Shown here: piece by piece, positions 27,125 through 53,840 of the stretch
How the letters are laid out: the number at the start of each line of letters is the position of its first letter
Position numbering within the stretch: position 1 is the stretch's first letter
Origin: Escherichia coli 042
GTDB taxonomy: Bacteria; Pseudomonadota; Gammaproteobacteria; Enterobacterales; Enterobacteriaceae
Direction: 5' to 3' (one strand)
DNA length: 64,000 nucleotides
NCBI RefSeq assembly: GCF_000027125.1
Contig: NC_017626.1
The notes under the pieces: generated by a model
What the model was told of the DNA's origin: nothing
The model's database searches: none
Seen by the model: only the letters and a program-made list of their open reading frames with translations
Position numbers and translations under genes: made by a program

Positions 27125-27200
27125 GCCCGGATAGCTCAGTCGGTAGAGCAGGGGATTGAAAATCCCCGTGTCCTTGGTTCGATTCCGAGTCCGGGCACCA
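27125..27200 (+). tRNA. pheV: tRNA-Phe (anticodon GAA)
   Basis: GCCCGGATAGCTCAGTCGGTAGAGCAGGGGATTGAAAATCCCCGTGTCCTTGGTTCGATTCCGAGTCCGGGCACCA; 76 nt, CCA end, GAA anticodon in loop. Confidence 0.95.
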
Positions 27201-31781: not shown

Positions 31782-32010
31782 AGCACTCCGGGCAATCTGC
31801 CCGGAGTGCTTTAGCTGGCATAACGGGCTACTGATCTCCTCTGGTTACAGATAACGACTTCAGCCCTCTGAAAGAGAAAAGCGGAAGCTCAGGAAGGTTG
31901 TGATTTGCTTTTAACCTTTTTAATTTAGAAGTATTATTTTGAGATTAATCCACTTCCCATCGTCATCCTTTTTGGTGTGCGTGAAAAGCTATTTTTAAGG
32001 TTACTGCCTC

Positions 32011-34320
32011 ATGGAGTTATGGATATTTATAGTAGCTATTTATTTGATTTATATTCTTTTTTTCAAAAAGAAGAAAACTAAGTCCGCGGGCTCTTATACT
32101 TCCGCTCCTGTGAAAGCACCACCTAAAGAATGGCTTGCTAACAACAAAAAAAATCAGTCTGTAATGCAAAACGAGGACAGCGAAGATGACAATCTGGCTA
32201 CGTTTACACTAAGTGGCGGGCGGAATGTCGAATACAGCATAACAGCCACTCAACGCCAGAATTTCTCAAAAACTACCGGTGCTTTGGCTCGTTGGATTTT
32301 TCCGGGAGAGATGATCACAGTCAGTGGGATAGAGGTTACCGGCGGTCACTTCTATCTTGGGCAGCGTATGAAACCTGCCGGGCATAACTCAGGCGGTTAT
32401 TATGATGGCAATAACGAGGCATCGCTAGTTGACGACACGCTTAAAATATACCCCACACCTTACATTTACGAAGATAGTTCATTAGGGTATTGGCCCAGTT
32501 TTTCCTCACTTTCACCTGAAGCTCGTGGTGCGTACCTGAGTTGGCTTGCCAGCGACAGATGCGACACTTCCTGCCCAATTGGTTACGTTTTCATTTATCT
32601 GTATGGTCTGGAAAGAAGGGCGCTTGTTGACAGCAGGGACAACAATATATCCGACGATGAGTTCTATTCTCTTTTCAAAGAGATCTGCCGTCTCAGATCG
32701 GTTTTCAATGAAAACCGATCTTTCCGGAATTACTCATCCCAGTTACTTGAAGCGATGTCCATTCTTCGTCCGAACGAAAATCTTGCAGCAGCTCTCAACG
32801 ATGATTCGGAGTTCAGCAATAGCATGCAGTTCAGGTTAATCCTGGCAAAGACTGTTGATACAGGAGCCCCGGTTCCAGCGGATCTGGCTCTGACGTGGGT
32901 GACAAACCATGCTGAATACTCATTACGAACCCCCGCCCGCCGCTGTGCGAAAGAATTTGCTGCACTATTTAAACGGCGTTACACCCTTAAATACGGTGAA
33001 GGGATGGTAGTGAAGCCGAATAAAGCGCGTCTGCGTTTAGATTACACGCCTGCAAGTCCCAGTTTGCGAGGTATTCGGCTTCCTGTTCCCGACTTGCCTG
33101 ATCCAGGTGCATTGAAAGGCCCTGTTCAGAAGCTTATGGCCATTGCCGATATATGCACAGGTGAACTGGATGCTTACAGTCGTTACCTTGGTAGAAAAGG
33201 TACTTCAGCAAATGATACCGCTGCAATTTTGTTGCTGCCTTCAGAAATCGTTAACGAAAGCGCAGAAAAAATATTAAGTACATTCAAACACTGGGCTGAT
33301 GACGCAATCCGCAGTAAGGGTGGGATAGTTTCAGTTGCTGACTACTGGTCACATATGAATGCCACCTGTCCGGCGAAGATCAATAAAAAAGAGGCCGACT
33401 TAATGCAAGCCTTTGCACAGAAAATGGGATACTGTCTGGCTCCTGACCCCTATCACCACCACGTAAAGGCAGATGTCGATGGTGTACTTGTTTTATTCCC
33501 TGCTGGTGAAAGAGGACGTTTCTCACCTTCTCCTGAATTTATCACAGCTGTATTGACGCTCCGATTAGGTTCGGTAGTCGCCTTGATTGACAATTCTCTC
33601 GATCAAGCCGAACAGAAAGTGCTTGAGAATGCCATCAACAACAATGCCAGCTTCAGCGATGATGAAAAGCGCTCTCTGCACGCATATTTAACGTGGCAGC
33701 TTCATACTCCGGCGAATATGACGGGAATGAAAAGCCGGATTGAATTACTCGGTGCAGCGGAAAAATCAGCTGTGGGTAAGGTTATCGTTAGTGTCGCTTG
33801 CTCTGACGGCAGAATTACGCCTGCCGAAATCAAACAGCTTGAGAAGATTTATACAAGCCTGGGACTGGATCCCTCATCCGTATCAAGCAATATCCATCAG
33901 CATTCCGCAACTGAAACTGCTCTCGTTTCATCTGTACCAGCTAATCAGTCGACGGCAGGGTTTACGCTGGATGCCAACGTACTTGCCCGCCACGAATCTG
34001 CCACTGATGATGTTCGTAAATTACTGAACTCAATTTTCACTGAAGAAGAACCAGAACAACCAGAAAGCGCTCCAGCCTCATTAACCGGGGAAGGGGGACT
34101 TGACTCCGCTCATAGCCAACTTTATCGCAGGTTGCTGGAGAAAGAACAATGGTCCAGAAAAGAGGCGACAGAGTTGTGTAGTAACTGGAACCTGATGCTC
34201 GGCGGTGCGCTTGAGGTGATTAACGATTGGTCCTATGCGGTGGTTGATGCACCAGTGCTGGAAGATGCTGATGATCACATTTGGATTGACCTGGAAATAG
34301 CCAAAGAATTAGAGGGTTAG
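32011..34320 (+). CDS. TerB-domain membrane-anchored protein (Shango SngA-like)
   Basis: 769 aa; N-terminal TM helix (MELWIFIVAIYLIYILFF), region with GYVFIYLYGLERR and a later ...VSVACSDGRITPAEIKQLEKIYTSLGLD block that I recognise as TerB-N / TerB-like; first gene of a tightly packed three-gene operon. Confidence 0.6.
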   Translation: MELWIFIVAIYLIYILFFKKKKTKSAGSYTSAPVKAPPKEWLANNKKNQSVMQNEDSEDDNLATFTLSGGRNVEYSITATQRQNFSKTTGALARWIFPGEMITVSGIEVTGGHFYLGQRMKPAGHNSGGYYDGNNEASLVDDTLKIYPTPYIYEDSSLGYWPSFSSLSPEARGAYLSWLASDRCDTSCPIGYVFIYLYGLERRALVDSRDNNISDDEFYSLFKEICRLRSVFNENRSFRNYSSQLLEAMSILRPNENLAAALNDDSEFSNSMQFRLILAKTVDTGAPVPADLALTWVTNHAEYSLRTPARRCAKEFAALFKRRYTLKYGEGMVVKPNKARLRLDYTPASPSLRGIRLPVPDLPDPGALKGPVQKLMAIADICTGELDAYSRYLGRKGTSANDTAAILLLPSEIVNESAEKILSTFKHWADDAIRSKGGIVSVADYWSHMNATCPAKINKKEADLMQAFAQKMGYCLAPDPYHHHVKADVDGVLVLFPAGERGRFSPSPEFITAVLTLRLGSVVALIDNSLDQAEQKVLENAINNNASFSDDEKRSLHAYLTWQLHTPANMTGMKSRIELLGAAEKSAVGKVIVSVACSDGRITPAEIKQLEKIYTSLGLDPSSVSSNIHQHSATETALVSSVPANQSTAGFTLDANVLARHESATDDVRKLLNSIFTEEEPEQPESAPASLTGEGGLDSAHSQLYRRLLEKEQWSRKEATELCSNWNLMLGGALEVINDWSYAVVDAPVLEDADDHIWIDLEIAKELEG

Positions 34321-34323
34321 TGA

Positions 34324-35640
34324 ATGTCTGTAACACGTATAAGAGTGAAAGAGCGCGACGCTATCATTCAGTCACTTAAGTCGGGAGTAACGCCAAGAAT
34401 AGGTATTCAGCATATCCAGGTTGGCCGCGTGAATGAGATAACCGCCCTCCATCAGGATATTGAACGGATTGCTGATGGCGGGGCAAGCTTCAGACTTATC
34501 ATTGGTGAGTACGGTTCCGGGAAAACATTCTTTTTAAGTGTTGTACGGTCTATTGCGTTAGAGAAGAAGCTGGTCACGGTCAGTGCAGACCTTTCTCCCG
34601 ACAGACGTATCCACTCATCGGGAGGTCAGGCTCGTAATCTCTACTCAGAGCTTATGAAAAATATGTCCACCAGAAACAAACCAGATGGCAATGCATTACT
34701 TAGCGTTGTGGAAAGGTTTGTTACTGAGGCAAGGAAGGAAGCTGATGCGAACGGCTCCCTGGTCTCATCCGTTATTCATAAACGCCTTGCTGCTTTGTCA
34801 GATATGGTGGGAGGATATGACTTTGCGAAGGTCATTGACGCATTCTGGCGCGGGCATGAGCAGGATAACGAAACCTTAAAATCCAATGCTATTCGCTGGT
34901 TGCGGGGCGAGTACACCACAAAAACTGATGCCCGTAATGATCTTGACGTCCGAACGATTATCTCAGACGCCTCGTTCTATGATTCTTTGAAGTTGATGAG
35001 CCTTTTTGTCCGTCAGGCAGGCTATGCCGGACTTTTAGTTAGCCTCGACGAGATGGTGAACCTCTTCAAGTTGAATAATACGCAAGCGAGAACGGCCAAC
35101 TACGAACAAATTTTGCGGATTCTGAATGACTGCCTGCAAGGCTCCGCCGAAAATATTGGTTTTATCCTCGGGGGGACGCCAGAATTTCTTTTCGATCCAC
35201 GTAAGGGGCTCTACAGCTATGAAGCGCTCCAGTCGCGTCTGGCAGAAAACCGATTCGCACAGAAAGCTGGCGTGATTGACTACTCGTCCCCCACGCTGCA
35301 TCTTGCCAGCCTCACTCCTGAGGAACTGTATATTTTACTGAAAAACCTTCGTCATGTTTATGCTGGTGGAGATCCCGTAAATTATCTGGTGCCAGATGAT
35401 GCTCTGACCGGGTTTCTGCATCACTGCAGCAAAACCATCGGAGATGCTTACTTTCGAACTCCCCGCAATACCATAAAAGGTTTTCTGGATATGCTGGCTG
35501 TGCTGGAACAAAACAGAACGATGAACTGGCAACCCCTCATTGAGGGGGTGGCGATTGAAGAAGACAAGCTCAGCGATATGGATGATGCCATTGTGGAGGA
35601 AAGTGATGACGATGATGGCCTGGCGAATTTCAGATTATGA
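34324..35640 (+). CDS. P-loop ATPase (Shango SngB-like)
   Basis: 438 aa; Walker A GEYGSGKTF, Walker B LLVSLDEM; starts 4 nt after upstream stop and overlaps downstream start. Confidence 0.65.
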   Translation: MSVTRIRVKERDAIIQSLKSGVTPRIGIQHIQVGRVNEITALHQDIERIADGGASFRLIIGEYGSGKTFFLSVVRSIALEKKLVTVSADLSPDRRIHSSGGQARNLYSELMKNMSTRNKPDGNALLSVVERFVTEARKEADANGSLVSSVIHKRLAALSDMVGGYDFAKVIDAFWRGHEQDNETLKSNAIRWLRGEYTTKTDARNDLDVRTIISDASFYDSLKLMSLFVRQAGYAGLLVSLDEMVNLFKLNNTQARTANYEQILRILNDCLQGSAENIGFILGGTPEFLFDPRKGLYSYEALQSRLAENRFAQKAGVIDYSSPTLHLASLTPEELYILLKNLRHVYAGGDPVNYLVPDDALTGFLHHCSKTIGDAYFRTPRNTIKGFLDMLAVLEQNRTMNWQPLIEGVAIEEDKLSDMDDAIVEESDDDDGLANFRL

Positions 35641-37835
35641 GTAGTGCCTACAATAGTCTTGATCCCCGTGTCCGTAAGTGGGTTTATAAGCAGGGCTGGT
35701 CATCCTTAAGGCCCTTGCAGGAAAGCTCTATTCCGGCAATTTTAGCCCGTGATCGTGATGTACTAATTAGTGCAGGTACAGCTGCGGGTAAAACAGAGGC
35801 TTTCTTTCTTCCTGCCTGTTCAGCGATTGCAGATCTCACTGGTGGATTTGGCATTATCTATATCAGTCCATTGAAGGCATTAATTAACGATCAACACCGT
35901 CGTCTTGAGAGTCTTGGTGAAGCCCTGGAAATGCAAGTGACGCCCTGGCACGGGGATGTACCACAAAGCAAAAAGAAGAAAGCACGGACAACCCCTTCTG
36001 GCATCTTACTTATCACACCTGAATCACTTGAGTCTTTGCTCATAAACTCATTGGGTTGGCTCAAACAGGCGTTTTCTTCTGTGGCATACATTGTTATTGA
36101 TGAGTTCCATGCTTTTATTGGCTCAGAGCGTGGTATACAGCTGCTTTCTCTGCTTAACAGAATTGACCATGTGCTGGGACGCCAGTTGAATCCAGTTCCC
36201 CGTGTCGCGTTGAGTGCCACACTGGGAGAGCTGGAAAAAGTACCAGAACTATTGCGCCCGGATAAGAGATTACCTTGTGAAACGGTAACAGACAGTAATA
36301 GCAAAGCCACAATACAGGTTCAGGTTAAAGGTTATCTTGAGCGGGTGCCCGAAAAAGGAAAAGAGCTCCAGAGCTCTGCTGAACAGCTCGTCTGCGCGGA
36401 TATTTTCAGGCTCTGCCGTGGCGATTCCCACCTAGTCTTTGCTAACAGTCGAAAGCGTACTGAAAGCATAGCGGCAACACTGAGCGACATGTGTGAAGCA
36501 AATGTCGTTCCTAATGAATTCTTTCCTCATCATGGTTCCCTTGCAAGGGAGTTGCGTGAGGCGCTTGAAGCCCGACTGCAGAAAGGGAATTTGCCCACAA
36601 CCGCTGTTTGTACAATGACTCTGGAGCTGGGTATTGATATTGGTAAGGTGCAGTCTGTCATACAAGTGACACCTCCGCATTCTGTTTCCAGTCTGCGTCA
36701 ACGCATGGGACGTTCAGGGCGGCGCGATTCCCCATCGGTGCTGAGAATGTTAATTACTGAACCTGAACTTACCGCAACCAGCAGCATTGTGGATCATTTA
36801 CGGCTGCAGTTGGTTCAGGCGATGGCAATGATCAGGTTGATGATCTCTAAGCGCTGGTTCGAGCCTGCAGATATCCGGCAGAAACATTACTCCACACTAC
36901 TACACCAGATCTTGGCTATTACTGCGCAATGGGGAGGTGTTCGTGCCGATCAGCTCTGGTCACAACTTTGCCAGACAGGTCCGTTCCGGAATGTGGATAT
37001 AAATGACTTCAAAAGTCTGCTTAAACATATGGGGACATGTGGCCTGCTCACTCAACTAACCAGCGGTGAAATAGTTGTCGGGGCTGAGGGGGAGAAACTG
37101 ACTAATCACTACACGTTTTATACCGTATTCAATACACCTGAGGAGTTTCGCATTGTAACGGGAAACCGAACTCTTGGCACAGTGCCTGTAGACTCCCCAC
37201 TTTTGCCGGAGCAGCACATCATCTTCGGCGGACGGCGCTGGAAAGTGACAGAGATCGAGGTTGAAAAAAAGGTTATCTATGTTGAGACGACTAAAGGCGG
37301 TCAGCCGCCACTATTCAGTGGTAGCGGGATGTCTGTTCATGATGTTGTTCGCCAGGAAATGCTCACTATCTACAGGGAAAATGATTACCGTATCGCGGTA
37401 GGCAACAAGAGAGTCGATTATGCTGATGCCGCAGCCAGAAGCCTCTTCGCGGAAGGAAGTGACAACTTCCAACGCTACAATCTACAAAATGACTGTTTTA
37501 TTGCCAGTGGTCAGAACTGCTACGTGATCCCGTGGATGGGGGATAAAATTGTCAATACAATTACGTCCCTGCTTATACGTTGTGGCTTTAAAGCCAGTTC
37601 ATTTGCAGGTGTGATAGAGGTAGAGGACTCAGGCGTTGCCTCTGTCCAGCGTGCACTTAAGAAAATGCTATTGTCGGGGCTACCTTCAGAGTTTGAGCTT
37701 GCTGCAGTTGTTCCCGACAAGTATCTGGATAAATATGACGAGTATTTACCAGAGACTTTGCTTGCTAAAGGGTATGGGGCACAGGCGTATGATATAGAAG
37801 GAACGTGCATCTGGCTGCAGAAACACCTTCAGTAG
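35637..37835 (+). CDS. DEAD/DEAH-box (Lhr-like SF2) helicase (Shango SngC-like)
   Basis: 732 aa; motif I AGTAAGKTEAF, motif II VIDEFH, motif III SAT, motif VI MGRSGRR; ATGA start/stop overlap with upstream ATPase. Confidence 0.7.
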   Translation: MSSAYNSLDPRVRKWVYKQGWSSLRPLQESSIPAILARDRDVLISAGTAAGKTEAFFLPACSAIADLTGGFGIIYISPLKALINDQHRRLESLGEALEMQVTPWHGDVPQSKKKKARTTPSGILLITPESLESLLINSLGWLKQAFSSVAYIVIDEFHAFIGSERGIQLLSLLNRIDHVLGRQLNPVPRVALSATLGELEKVPELLRPDKRLPCETVTDSNSKATIQVQVKGYLERVPEKGKELQSSAEQLVCADIFRLCRGDSHLVFANSRKRTESIAATLSDMCEANVVPNEFFPHHGSLARELREALEARLQKGNLPTTAVCTMTLELGIDIGKVQSVIQVTPPHSVSSLRQRMGRSGRRDSPSVLRMLITEPELTATSSIVDHLRLQLVQAMAMIRLMISKRWFEPADIRQKHYSTLLHQILAITAQWGGVRADQLWSQLCQTGPFRNVDINDFKSLLKHMGTCGLLTQLTSGEIVVGAEGEKLTNHYTFYTVFNTPEEFRIVTGNRTLGTVPVDSPLLPEQHIIFGGRRWKVTEIEVEKKVIYVETTKGGQPPLFSGSGMSVHDVVRQEMLTIYRENDYRIAVGNKRVDYADAAARSLFAEGSDNFQRYNLQNDCFIASGQNCYVIPWMGDKIVNTITSLLIRCGFKASSFAGVIEVEDSGVASVQRALKKMLLSGLPSEFELAAVVPDKYLDKYDEYLPETLLAKGYGAQAYDIEGTCIWLQKHLQ

Positions 37836-48657: not shown

Positions 48658-48732
48658 GAAATGTTCCTTTTCAAACCCTGTTGAATTTTGTTAAGCCAGT
48701 GCAGACACAGTAAAGCGCGCATCAACACCTGA
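48641..48732. repeat. left copy of ~95-bp imperfect direct repeat flanking the microcin cluster
   Basis: gcttcggttatttgcac...tgttgaattttgttaagcc.gtgcagacaca...gcgcatcaacacc shared with 61420..61514 (identical blocks of 17, 19 and 11 nt). Confidence 0.7.
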
Positions 48733-49087
48733 AATGATGGTTTTATTCAGAGTATATGACTTTCTTTTACCCGCTCAAGATACGTTCCCTAGCGATATCA
48801 TCAGAAGTTTATGTGTTGTGTATCCATCCATATTAATCTGGTTCCAGTTTTCGGTATATGTCATGAGGAAACATTACAAATATATTCTGGAGCGGAGAAA
48901 GGAAATTGAAACCGTTTCAGAAAGGTTGATACGTGAGGCTGATACGAGAGAATATGAACTATGGCGTCCTGCCCGTCGTTTTTTCTCCATTCTTTTTATT
49001 GTTCTATTAGTTTATATTCATTCACTGATAACAACTATAAAATAAAAATTATGGCTGTTCTGATACCGGAGAAGAAACGTTCATTCT

Positions 49088-49806
49088 ATGGTTACCTCTT
49101 CCTGTTATATAAAAATTTTAAATAACAAGCAAGGGAATATAAATGGAAATAACAAAAAATGCAACATAAAAACAGTCATCAGCGGCTGCTTTTTAATGTT
49201 TACTTTATCATTTTCTATTACCTTTATTCCTGCATTCCTTACAAACAGGCAGGAACTTATATCCAGGGGACTTCTTGTTCCAGCATTATTTCTTGCTGAA
49301 TTTCTAATTCTTGTTCCACTGTATTTTATTTTCTTCCGAAAAAGAGAAGGATTAGGAAGAGGTTCTTTTCGACCGGATGTTTTTTACTCTTTTCTCTTTA
49401 ATAATGATTATTCAGTTATTTGTCCCTTATCTGCTGGCAGTGAGGAAAACGGAAGAATGGATGATCTCGCAAATGTCTTTTTCTGAGGCCATTTTATGTT
49501 TCTTCTGTACTTCTATGTTCCTGTATATGAAGAGATTGTATTTCGAGGGTGTTTTTTTAATTCTTTATAATTCTGGTTTAATGACAATATTTACATCTCT
49601 GCCATTGTAACATCAGTCATATTCTCTGCATTGCATCTACAATATACTGACTTTCGTACATTTTTTATGCTCTTTTTAGTATCGTTAGTTCTTATTAGCG
49701 CACAAATAAAGTCGAATGGTCTGTTAATGCCCATATTACTTCACATGGCGATGAATGCAGTCATAGCAGGAATACAATATCTAGCTTATATCAGTTATTC
49801 CCATTA
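49088..49806 (+). pseudogene. possible CPBP (CAAX-protease/Abi)-family membrane protein, apparently frameshifted
   Basis: Three successive overlapping frames of hydrophobic ORFs; the last (49617..49806) reads ...FSALHLQYTDF...LLHMAMNAVIAG, resembling CPBP motifs 2 and 3; motif 1 not clearly seen. Confidence 0.3.
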
Positions 49807-50002
49807 ACAGAGCATTTTCTGTTACAATCTCATATGATAAAAATTAAACGGACTAGCATTGTTACTATGCGGTATGCATAAAATGATAAACGTTCGGAGG
49901 AGCCTAACTTAAACCATTACATAGGCATCATTAACAATATAAGGTTTAATTTCCACTCCCCGCAGACGAAGAAGCACTTGATGTACATCTGCCGGATCCA
50001 AA

Positions 50003-50224
50003 CTAGGATGATAATCCTATACCTGAGGGAGACATGGAGGGACTAACCGTCGCAGTCGTTGCCCATGAATGTACTTTATCACCTATATAAGCCCCTGCAA
50101 TAGAACCAAATCCCGGGCTAATAAACGTACCTGCAAGTGAACCAATAGCAATTAATTCTGCCTGCCCGTCATTCCCGTCACCTCCAGATATTTGTTTTAT
50201 TTCATTTTCAGATAGTTTTCTCAT
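50003..50224 (-). CDS. mcmA: microcin M precursor (class IIb siderophore-microcin)
   Basis: MRKLSENEIKQISGG double-glycine leader and Ser-rich C-terminus ...MSPSGIGLSS; recognised as microcin M precursor; ATG at 50224 with aaggtg RBS; the track ORF extends in-frame upstream from a TTG. Confidence 0.8.
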   Translation of the reverse strand: MRKLSENEIKQISGGDGNDGQAELIAIGSLAGTFISPGFGSIAGAYIGDKVHSWATTATVSPSMSPSGIGLSS

Positions 50225-50285
50225 TTCAACACCTTCGCTATAAAATTTGTGAAGAAGTAAAAATTCACGTTTAACCACAACGATA

Positions 50286-50441
50286 AAAATGTAACTACAA
50301 GTGATAAAAAAACATATATAGATTAAAAAAATTATATCTATAGTAATAACTAAGATATAATGACACCGGAATATAAAAGAACAGATAATTGATAACAAAA
50401 GCAATCACTGTTATTTTTATATCCTTCTTAACCTCCCCCAT
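50286..50441 (-). CDS. candidate microcin M immunity peptide (51 aa, hydrophobic)
   Basis: Hand-translated ORF MGEVKKDIKITVIAFVINYLFFYIPVSLYLSYYYRYNFFNLYMFFYHL between mchF and mcmA with ggag RBS; below the track cutoff; the known immunity protein length was not verified. Confidence 0.35.
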
Positions 50442-50476
50442 CGACAAAACTCCTTACAAAGTTACACCAGTGGATT

Positions 50477-52573
50477 TTAAATAGAAATAATCCTGTCAAC
50501 AGTTCTCAACGTAGTTTCTCTGTGTGCAATAATCACCCGGGTGATATTCATTTTTTTTATGGCAGCATTCACGAAACGTTCACTTTCTGTATCAAGAGAA
50601 CTTGTAGCCTCATCCATAAATAATATTCCAGGTTTCCGGTATAAAGCTCGGGCAATGAATATACGCTGTTTTTGACCGCCGGAAAGACCTTCCCCCAGTT
50701 CACCTATTAACGTTTCATACCCCATTGGCATTTTCATTATCACATCATGAATATGACTTGCTCTGGCACATTCTGTCATCCATTCGTCGTCTGTTTCTTC
50801 TGCAAACCCACAGATATTTTCACGAATTGATCCTGAAAATAGCCGGTCGTCCTGCATAACACAGGCTATCATACGGTGATAATTATTTATTCCAAGTTGA
50901 CGTATATCCGTGCCATTAACCAGTACTTTTCCACTATCTGGTTCAAACAGTCCACATAATACTTTCATTAATGTGGTTTTTCCGGCACCGGAGGCACCAG
51001 TTATAGCCACACTTTCTCCCGGAGCCACAGACAAATTCAGACCACTGAATACCTGTGCTGACTGGCTGTCATACCGGTAGCTTAAATCAGTGGTTTCCAG
51101 TGAAACCGGGCTCATGTCAGCAACGATTTCAATTTCCGGTTTCTTTTCTTCCTTTTCATGTAGTGCAATATCTGCAATGCGCTCATTATGCAGACTCATT
51201 ATTCTCAGTTGAAGAAGAAAACTGGTCAGCGAAGCAACCCGATCCGAAAACTGCCCACGAAAAGAACCAAATGCCACAAACATCCCTATTGTCATCTGAT
51301 TATCGATCACAAGGCTTGCACCCAGCCATAAAATCGCCACCTGATCACAGGCGGCAACAAAAGTATTTATCCCCCCGAAGAGCAAATCCATCTTGGTTAA
51401 CTTAATACCTGAATTGATCGCATCTATTTTCAGGTTAAGCCAGTGTGTTCCCCGGATCCCAGCCATACCTTGGATTTTTACCGTGGCAATACCATACAGG
51501 CTTTCCATAAAATAGGAGCTGGCCCGGGCCCCCCTGACAAGAGTTTCTTCCGATATTTGCCGGTAATAGCCGTATGTCACCAGACGAATAAGAACGTAAA
51601 CCATGGTAAAACCGAGCACTATCCAGGTAAGATATCCTCCATATAACAGCATCATCACAAAAACACCCACAACCATAATACTGTCCATGATTGCCCCAAC
51701 CACACAGGTGGTAAAGGTGGCCCTCAAAGTGTCAAGGGAGCCAAAACGCGACTGGATATCACCTAATTTACGGCGTTCAAAAAACGCCAGCGGCAGTCTG
51801 AGAAGATGGTTAAACAGACCCGACTGCCACTGTATATTGATGAGCGTGCTCATAACCAGTGAGGACCATGCACGCAGCATACTCACCGCGGCCCTGAGCA
51901 ATATAAAGAACATCAGGCCAGCAGAAATAAGCGTCAGCAGCCCTCTGTCCCCCGCCGGAATCGCATGATCCATAACCAGCTGAGTCCCCACCGGCATTAC
52001 CAGATTGATTGCTTCAATTACAACTGACAGACAGAAAATTTTCGCCAGTGTTCTTTTAATACCGTAAATACTGTTAATCAGTGAACGGAGACTTATGCGG
52101 ATCTGCTGGGTTTCCGCCAGGAATTCACTTCCAGGCCAGACCTCAAGTGCAATGCCCGTAAAATACCGGCTCATTTCCTCCCGACCGAGATATCTTCTGC
52201 CTCTGGCCGGATCATGCAGTACATAACGGTTACGCTTTACGCTGACCAGCACGACAAAGTGACTGAAATCCCAGTGGAGAATACACGGCATTTTGAGGGC
52301 ACCAAGTTCATCCAGCTCCAGTGAAAGAGCCCGGGTGACCATCCCCAGCTGCTCCGCTATTCCATTGATTCCTGCAAGGTTTGCTCCACGGGCCGAGAGA
52401 TTAAACTTCCGGCGAAGAGATATCAGGTCAATATTCTTACCAAAATGACCGCATATCATTGCCAGGCAGGCCAGTCCACATTCAGCGGTCTCCGTCTGAT
52501 GAATAACCGGAACACGACGTCGCCAGCGCATATCAAGCTGATTTATAATTTGTCTGAAACTCCCGTTAGTCAT
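50477..52573 (-). CDS. mchF: microcin ABC exporter with N-terminal C39 peptidase domain (CvaB homolog)
   Basis: Track ORF 50477..52591; from [42 protein letters not shown] closely matches CvaB/MchF; Walker [10 protein letters not shown], signature LSGGQ. Confidence 0.85.
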
Positions 52574-53840
52574 TGAGCGGTCCTGTTGCACTGTGTTTCA
52601 TGTCATAGAAAGGAGAAAGCATCCACTGGTAAATACGCCTTTTTTCCAGAAATAGTGTACTTTCGGCTTTCATTCCATTTTCCAGAGGGAGGTATTTTTC
52701 GTCATATCTGATAATCTGCTTTTCAGGCATCGCAATGACTTTATACCAGGGAACAGAGGCGCCCGGCGTATTCTGTGGTGCACCCTTATAGGTCAACATT
52801 TCCTGTGTTGACGCAGGAGTCCTGGATATAGTTTTAACCGTAGCAGAGAACTGCCCAAATTTTTCTGCCGGAAAGGCTTCATAACGAATATTCACTTTGT
52901 CACCAGCCGAAATATAAGGAACAGCATCATTTGGGACCCAGAGAATAAGATAATAGTTTTCAATGTTCTCAGGAATAACCTGCAGAAGGCTGTCTCCGGT
53001 ATTGACCATTTGCCCGACAGTGACACTCAGGGAGTCAACTTTCCCGTCAGTCAACGCCCGGATAATAATTTCGCCCTCCACATCAGTGTTAACCAGTTCT
53101 TTCTGTAACTCGTACCGTTGCAGTTCCATCTGGTAGATACGGTTATCAAAATCTGCAGCCTGAGTCTGAATCTGACTCTCCAGAGTGGTTATCTGCAGGG
53201 CATTCTGTTCGTTCTGTCCGCTCAGGCTGAGAAGATTGTTTTGTTGCTGATAATATAATGCCACCTGGTTAGTTAACTGATCTTTATTAATCAGCCCTTT
53301 TGCCTGATAGTTTCTGTAATTCTCCATATTGTTTTTCATTATTTTTATCCCTTCCTCTGCACGCTGTATAATATCTGATGAGCGACGAAACGCATCTGTG
53401 TATTGCAGACGTTGTTTTTCCAGGGTATCTAACGTTATTTTTTTACTTTCTTCCAGACGGGAAATAATGTTGTCCACACGAACCAGCTGATTTTCTATAT
53501 CCCGCCGATGATTATCAGTGACAATACCACTACGTGTACTTTTACTGATGTCAATCAGATAAACAGGATCCCCTTTTTTTATCAACTGCCCTTCATGAAC
53601 AAATTGCCTGACAACAAATCCCTGTACACCTGAATATATATTGACAGCTCTTGGCCAGGTTGTGACCTCACCACTGACATTAACACGGCGGCTATAGGTA
53701 CCAACAATAATGAACATCAGAAATGCCGTAATAAACACAATGCTTCCCAGCATGATTAACCATAGTGGTATTCCGGGAAGTAATATTGCCCGTCCCTGCC
53801 ACTTCATTTTTCTGTTTTCTAAAGCATCCTGACGAAACAA
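52566..53840 (-). CDS. mchE: microcin secretion membrane fusion protein (CvaA/HlyD family)
   Basis: 424 aa; [40 protein letters not shown] matches CvaA/MchE N-terminus; overlaps mchF start. Confidence 0.85.

Follow-up and report, generated by a model that had tools for sequence, protein, structure and literature searches.

The closest described relatives of the locus analyzed here are mcmM of the microcin M (MccM) systems in Escherichia coli Nissle 1917, CA46 and CA58, and mceF, which two papers describe as mcmM-like and as the last gene of the class IIb microcin E492 (MccE492) cluster of Klebsiella pneumoniae RYC492 (PMC6795089, PMC4891358). PMC6795089 gives the mcmM product as a protein of 228 aa with 7 transmembrane segments that resembles mceF of the MccE492 cluster, and the product of the accompanying gene mcmT as one of about 156 aa with 3 transmembrane segments. 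The same review relays thesis work in which McmT was reported to give cross-immunity to MccH47 and MccM, in which a doctoral candidate found no evidence that immunity to MccM or MccH47 requires mcmM, and in which MceF acted as a negative regulator of MccE492 immunity. Elsewhere, mcmM has been placed under export without experimental data (PMC6776366, PMC7472721), and MccE492 was still produced from plasmids with a truncated mceF (pJAM229; PMC6071977). The published labels for McmM-type proteins are conflicting, with export, negative regulation of immunity and no need in immunity all on offer.

We analyzed a stretch of 64,000 nucleotides from Escherichia coli 042 (contig NC_017626.1; hereafter the window, with positions counted from its first letter) and conclude, with a probability of about 0.96, that positions 49143-49807 on the plus strand are a non-functional remnant (pseudogene) of mcmM, a gene for a seven-helix inner-membrane protein of the CPBP (Rce1-like, 'Abi') family. 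The gene, its family and the pseudogene status of this allele are already known, being on record in public annotation and the microcin literature. The setting is the E. coli siderophore-microcin H47/M island, at the end of which mcmM lies convergent with mcmA. A megablast search with 48700-50300 against complete E. coli genomes recovered a 100%-identical sequence in NZ_AP022298.1, labeled there by PGAP as 'CPBP family intramembrane glutamic endopeptidase; frameshifted; internal stop', and the same mcmM copy in strain 97-3250 is likewise annotated as a pseudogene by PGAP. At the orthologous position, Nissle 1917 has an intact 228-aa CPBP gene (WP_000426105.1), with mcmT before it and convergent mcmA and mchF after it; the window copy occupies the corresponding place between mcmT and convergent mcmA, beside mchF. 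When we searched the whole window with intact Nissle McmM by tblastn, a single match dominated (49151-49804, E = 1.2e-92), with all others at E > 0.7. Compared with the intact Nissle gene (L003:6974-7660, 687 nt), the window copy shows 28 substitutions in about 660 aligned bases and 6 indel events.

Table 1. Features of the mcmM pseudogene and neighboring microcin genes in the window, with frame numbers following the reading path of the ancestral gene
Feature	Position	Strand	Remarks
mcmM pseudogene	49143-49807	+	ancestral ATG to ancestral TAA (stop 49805-49807); DNA alignment to Nissle mcmM, tblastn, Pfam, PGAP
Ancestral ATG	49143	+	frame 0
6-nt deletion, one AAAAAT repeat copy	after 49154	+	frame stays 0
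3-nt deletion and substitution at 49167	after 49165	+	in-frame TAA at 49167-49169 (codon 9); frame 0
1-nt deletion (GCC GGC to GC GGC)	49182/49183	+	frame 0 to 2
2-nt deletion in T run (T6; intact gene T8)	49380-49385	+	frame 2 to 0
11-nt deletion (GATTAATATAT of intact gene)	49498/49499	+	frame 0 to 1
1-nt insertion (A)	49515	+	frame 1 to 2
In-frame TAA (TTT AAA to TTA TAA)	49568-49570	+	between motifs 1 and 2; frame 2
CPBP motif 1, EEIVFR	49529-49546	+	fits EExxxR (catalytic Glu-Glu and Arg of the family); retained, frame 2
CPBP motif 2, FSALH	49622-49636	+	fits FxxxH
CPBP motif 3, HMAMN	49742-49756	+	fits HxxxN
ORF1	49088-49486	+	132 aa; ORF list
ORF2	49377-49610	+	77 aa; ORF list
ORF3	49631-49807	+	58 aa; ORF list
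mcmT remnant (3' two-thirds)	48734-49045	+	about 0.5 kb including start and upstream region deleted relative to Nissle; PGAP 'incomplete; missing N-terminus'
mcmA (microcin M precursor)	50003-50224	-	CAG to TAG at codon 74 (TAG 50003-50005); 19-residue Ser-rich C-terminal tail lost
mcmI (microcin M immunity)	50221-50447	-	frameshift; plus-strand A run 50306-50312 has 7 bases, against 8 in Nissle and 97-3250
mchF (ABC exporter, C39 peptidase domain) and mchE (HlyD-type, 52566-53840)	50477-53840	-	both open; shared microcin export genes

Membership in the CPBP family is still legible in the decayed sequence. The frame-corrected window translation matches Pfam PF02517 (Rce1-like) at 60.8 bits (E = 1.5e-16; cut-off 22.4 bits), compared with 61.9 bits for the intact orthologue, and ORF3 passes the cut-off by itself at 22.9 bits. 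Every NCBIfam match was to a CPBP model and all scored under the equivalog cut-offs, so no named subfamily applies. The original prediction, which likened FSALH and HMAMN to CPBP motifs 2 and 3, was right about both; the first three residues of FSALH are encoded ahead of the TTG start of ORF3, yet in the same open frame. It overlooked motif 1, EEIVFR, because ORF2 reads that segment in the wrong frame. The corresponding residues—E137, E138, R142, H172, H208 and N212—are invariant across 48 enterobacterial McmM homologues, and the multi-helix membrane fold of Rce1/SpdC is found as well. Neither Foldseek nor a sequence-profile search returned a match for McmM in the PDB. With the full-length alignment to Nissle mcmM, the PF02517 match, the three motifs and the PGAP label, the predicted frameshifted CPBP/CAAX-protease-family gene beside microcin genes is confirmed, and the CPBP similarity on which that prediction hinged proved strong in frameshift-tolerant alignment.

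A functional mcmM/mceF member has an uninterrupted frame of about 228 codons, and the window copy has none. Its lesions amount to four frame changes (-1, -2, -11 and +1 nt), two in-frame TAA codons and, close to the start, losses of 6 and 3 nt. Three-frame translation and alignment to Nissle trace the true reading path from frame 0 through 2, 0 and 1 to 2. The longest piece in the correct frame comprises 58 codons from a TTG and is without the Glu-Glu motif; the four frame changes together with the two in-frame stops preclude synthesis of a CPBP protein. Three hydrophobic plus-strand ORFs do exist as predicted, although not all in different frames: ORF1 and ORF3 share one (mod 3 = 2) and only ORF2 differs. 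The start of ORF1 is not the ancestral one, its first 55 bases being spurious read-in ahead of the true ATG. The dN/dS ratio between the window allele and Nissle mcmM is 0.28, based on the small counts of 13 synonymous and 13 non-synonymous changes, with a value of 0.18 for the control gene mchF; this indicates that most of the divergence arose under constraint, before inactivation, and that inactivation is not ancient. A promoter scan of the mcmM region yielded matches at chance level only, and terminator-like matches in the region were discounted, as they fall within coding sequence and Nissle has them too.

The decay extends beyond mcmM, and the microcin M module of this strain (mcmT, mcmM, mcmA and mcmI) is wholly decayed. 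The mcmA product is shortened to 73 aa, against 92 aa in other strains, and PGAP names it only 'colicin V family bacteriocin'. In class IIb microcins, the siderophore moiety is attached at the Ser-rich C-terminal tail. Strains carrying the window mcmA allele would score mcmA-positive by PCR, yet mature MccM is not expected from them. The mcmI ORF, intact in Nissle and 97-3250, ends in the window after 50 codons instead of 75; PGAP gave no mcmI annotation in the records inspected. In Nissle, mcmT encodes a 152-aa three-helix membrane protein, annotated as hypothetical, directly before mcmM, and in the window remnant a 103-codon ORF from an internal Met is still open. Strain 97-3250 carries the window's damage in mcmM and mcmT with mcmA and mcmI open, from which it follows that the mcmM and mcmT lesions are older than those of mcmA and mcmI in the window lineage. 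The microcin H47 genes that are open in the window include mchB, mchI, mchC, mchD, mchE, mchF and the modification genes.

Where mcmM and mcmA converge at their 3' ends, Nissle has an intervening 36-nt segment (L003:~7747-7782) that is missing from the window (at 49881/49882) and from 97-3250. This segment contains a perfect 8-bp inverted repeat, AGCACCTG-TAA-CAGGTGCT, and is possibly a shared transcription terminator.

Across E. coli, 522 of 5426 complete genomes carry mcmM-like DNA, and among the protein clusters that of the intact 228-aa form is by far the largest, with 1267 member sequences. The sampled loci include one intact allele (L006). In L005, a T8-to-T7 frameshift (~2729) is the sole mcmM lesion; L007 (~2728) and L008 have a T6 allele (M6-type) that has lost its start codon and in which PGAP calls a 142-aa ORF, both copies lying outside any microcin cluster; and L009 has a 253-nt mcmM deletion beside an IS. 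The T8 run has changed independently, to T7 in L005 and to T6 in both the window allele and the M6-type allele. Taken with the window, the lesions in L005, L007, L008 and L009 indicate that loss of mcmM is recurrent and that the T8 run is a hotspot. In the T6 state, an ATG stands directly before an ORF of 142-145 codons that holds the whole PF02517 domain, and short CPBP ORFs of this kind (P0021, P0046, P0056) are common in E. coli protein collections, and PGAP annotates them as proteins. It is conceivable, though unlikely, that these widespread C-terminal ORFs of 145 codons in the T6 state are functional.

That mcmM is intact in the organism, its frameshifts being sequencing or assembly errors in homopolymer runs, strikes us as having practically no chance of being true. 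One lesion does fall in a homopolymer (T6 vs. T8 at 49380-49385), and in neighboring mcmI the sole break is a 1-nt change in a run of 8 bases; however, the 11-, 6- and 3-nt deletions and the two stops derived from substitutions are not homopolymer errors. Nor do the sites proposed in the original prediction, at about 49480 and 49610, hold up as frameshift sites or as homopolymer errors causing the disruption: neither has an indel relative to the intact gene, wrong-frame reading merely meets stops there, and the lesions lie elsewhere. The window allele was found at full length and at least 99% identity in about 25 complete E. coli genomes from differing laboratories, hosts and countries with an identical lesion set, so that the larger deletions are common to many independent genomes, and the mcmM of 97-3250 has all window lesions in common except one A in a run. 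Much the same evidence bears on the idea that the locus still works as a split gene, whether because ribosomes shift frame or because separate membrane peptides are made, with ORF1 supplying the N-terminal helices and a C-terminal piece resembling the 142-145-aa short CPBP ORFs. The T6 state indeed puts the ATG at 49377 in frame with the C-terminal part, and the ORFs of that length in other alleles are common and hold the whole PF02517 domain (P0021, P0046, P0056). In the window, however, the short ORF is itself interrupted further on by the 11-nt deletion, the inserted base and the TAA at 49568, a stop that separates motif 1 from motifs 2 and 3; four shifts in differing directions and two stops could not be bypassed by any known recoding mechanism, and the 5' deletion in mcmT rearranges the upstream region, making a working split gene very improbable. 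We rejected both explanations on the type of the lesions and their occurrence across genomes.

A further proposal is that loss of mcmM was selected, or is switchable at the T8 run, rather than being neutral decay. Since McmM/MceF-type proteins reportedly lower microcin immunity, inactivation would on this proposal benefit the carrier, in agreement with the description of MceF as a negative regulator of immunity in PMC6795089, which cites a thesis. Independent inactivation has indeed recurred, through T7 in L005, T6 in two allele lineages and the 253-nt deletion in L009, and the 97-3250 lineage has a dead mcmM with mcmA and mcmI open. Against this, the intact form remains the largest cluster (1267) and is kept in Nissle-type islands, the single-lesion case (L005) could be an assembly error, and the death of the whole MccM module in the window fits simple disuse; recurrent loss is also what one would expect if a dispensable gene with a homopolymer hotspot decayed neutrally. 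We consider selected or switchable loss unlikely, and would put equally little weight on its corollary that McmM is a modulator of microcin immunity or export as opposed to a passive passenger. Even if loss were favored or switched and the short CPBP ORFs functional, the window copy of mcmM would still be dead.

The island as a whole (27077-64000) is 99.8-99.9% identical to an island of NZ_AP022298.1, and the match between the window and that record is limited to it. In the window, the island lies at a tRNA-Phe gene (27125-27200) next to yqgA/speC (the pheV side), and in NZ_AP022298.1 it lies at the other tRNA-Phe gene, next to dsbD/dicD. These different neighbors imply that the same island has inserted at alternative phe-tRNA sites in different strains. 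Going by the annotation of this near-identical record, window positions ~32000-37800, inside the island, encode in a row a TerB-N-domain protein, an ATP-binding protein and a DEAD/DEAH helicase; PAPS-reductase/IbrB-like genes come next, with type VI secretion gene fragments. The array looks like a putative defence-type gene set.

As for intact McmM, its retained catalytic residues and its linkage to class IIb clusters in E. coli, in Salmonella (this analysis) and in Klebsiella (mceF, from the literature) suggest a probable role for it in class IIb microcin systems, either as an active intramembrane glutamic protease or as an accessory factor that resembles one. Klebsiella homologues are 54-61% identical to McmM (P0012, P0034). 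A Salmonella homologue of 53% identity has the same convergent placement, with a Ser-rich double-glycine peptide and homologues of MchF/E/D/C next to it. On this Salmonella enterica contig, the peptide is a 96-aa double-glycine, Gly/Ser-rich product with a Ser-rich C-terminus (L010:8967-9257, minus strand) and the convergent McmM homologue spans L010:8001-8696 (plus strand); this is a microcin cluster of class IIb type in which the CPBP gene is placed as in E. coli. We searched beside this CPBP gene for an McmT homologue and found none, the 144-aa neighbor being unrelated. Homologues in Citrobacter and Serratia occur in core-chromosome contexts with no microcin genes, and the McmM family is accordingly not strictly microcin-linked. 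The mcmM gene appears to be dispensable, so that it would decay when the MccM genes go, or earlier still. The 'ancestral extra immunity function' that the original prediction suggested for it is conjecture.

For strain typing, these findings mean that this strain, whose microcin H47/I47-type island has an entirely inactivated microcin M module, should not be counted among microcin M producers. This point is relevant because mcmA and mcmM serve as PCR or genomic markers for MccM (e.g., PMC3242755). The recurrent decay of mcmM, including in a background with mcmA and mcmI open, also lends modest comparative support to the thesis-level reports that the gene is dispensable in MccM/H47 immunity. 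Beyond correct annotation, the mcmM finding in the window is an ordinary one and matters little.

Set against known systems, McmM shares only 16% identity with the solved CPBP structures, Rce1 of Methanococcus maripaludis (4cad) and SpdC/LyrA of Staphylococcus aureus (6u0o). SpdC is said to be without catalytic residues and to act as a scaffold; unlike SpdC, McmM retains those residues. In Gram-positive bacteria, Kjos et al. in 2010 reportedly described Abi/CPBP proteins that provide bacteriocin self-immunity, for instance at sakacin and plantaricin loci. McmM resembles these Abi proteins in that it is a membrane protein of the CPBP family whose gene neighbors bacteriocin structural genes, but the thesis relayed in PMC6795089 found no evidence of an immunity role for it, and its island has dedicated small immunity proteins, McmI and MchI. 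The mceF gene differs from mcmM in belonging to another genus and another microcin, its likeness being known from literature descriptions. The window copy is orthologous to mcmM of Nissle 1917, CA46 and CA58, with which it shares locus, position and the three CPBP motifs, and from which it differs in its four frame changes, two stops and small deletions—an allele that can no longer encode the protein.
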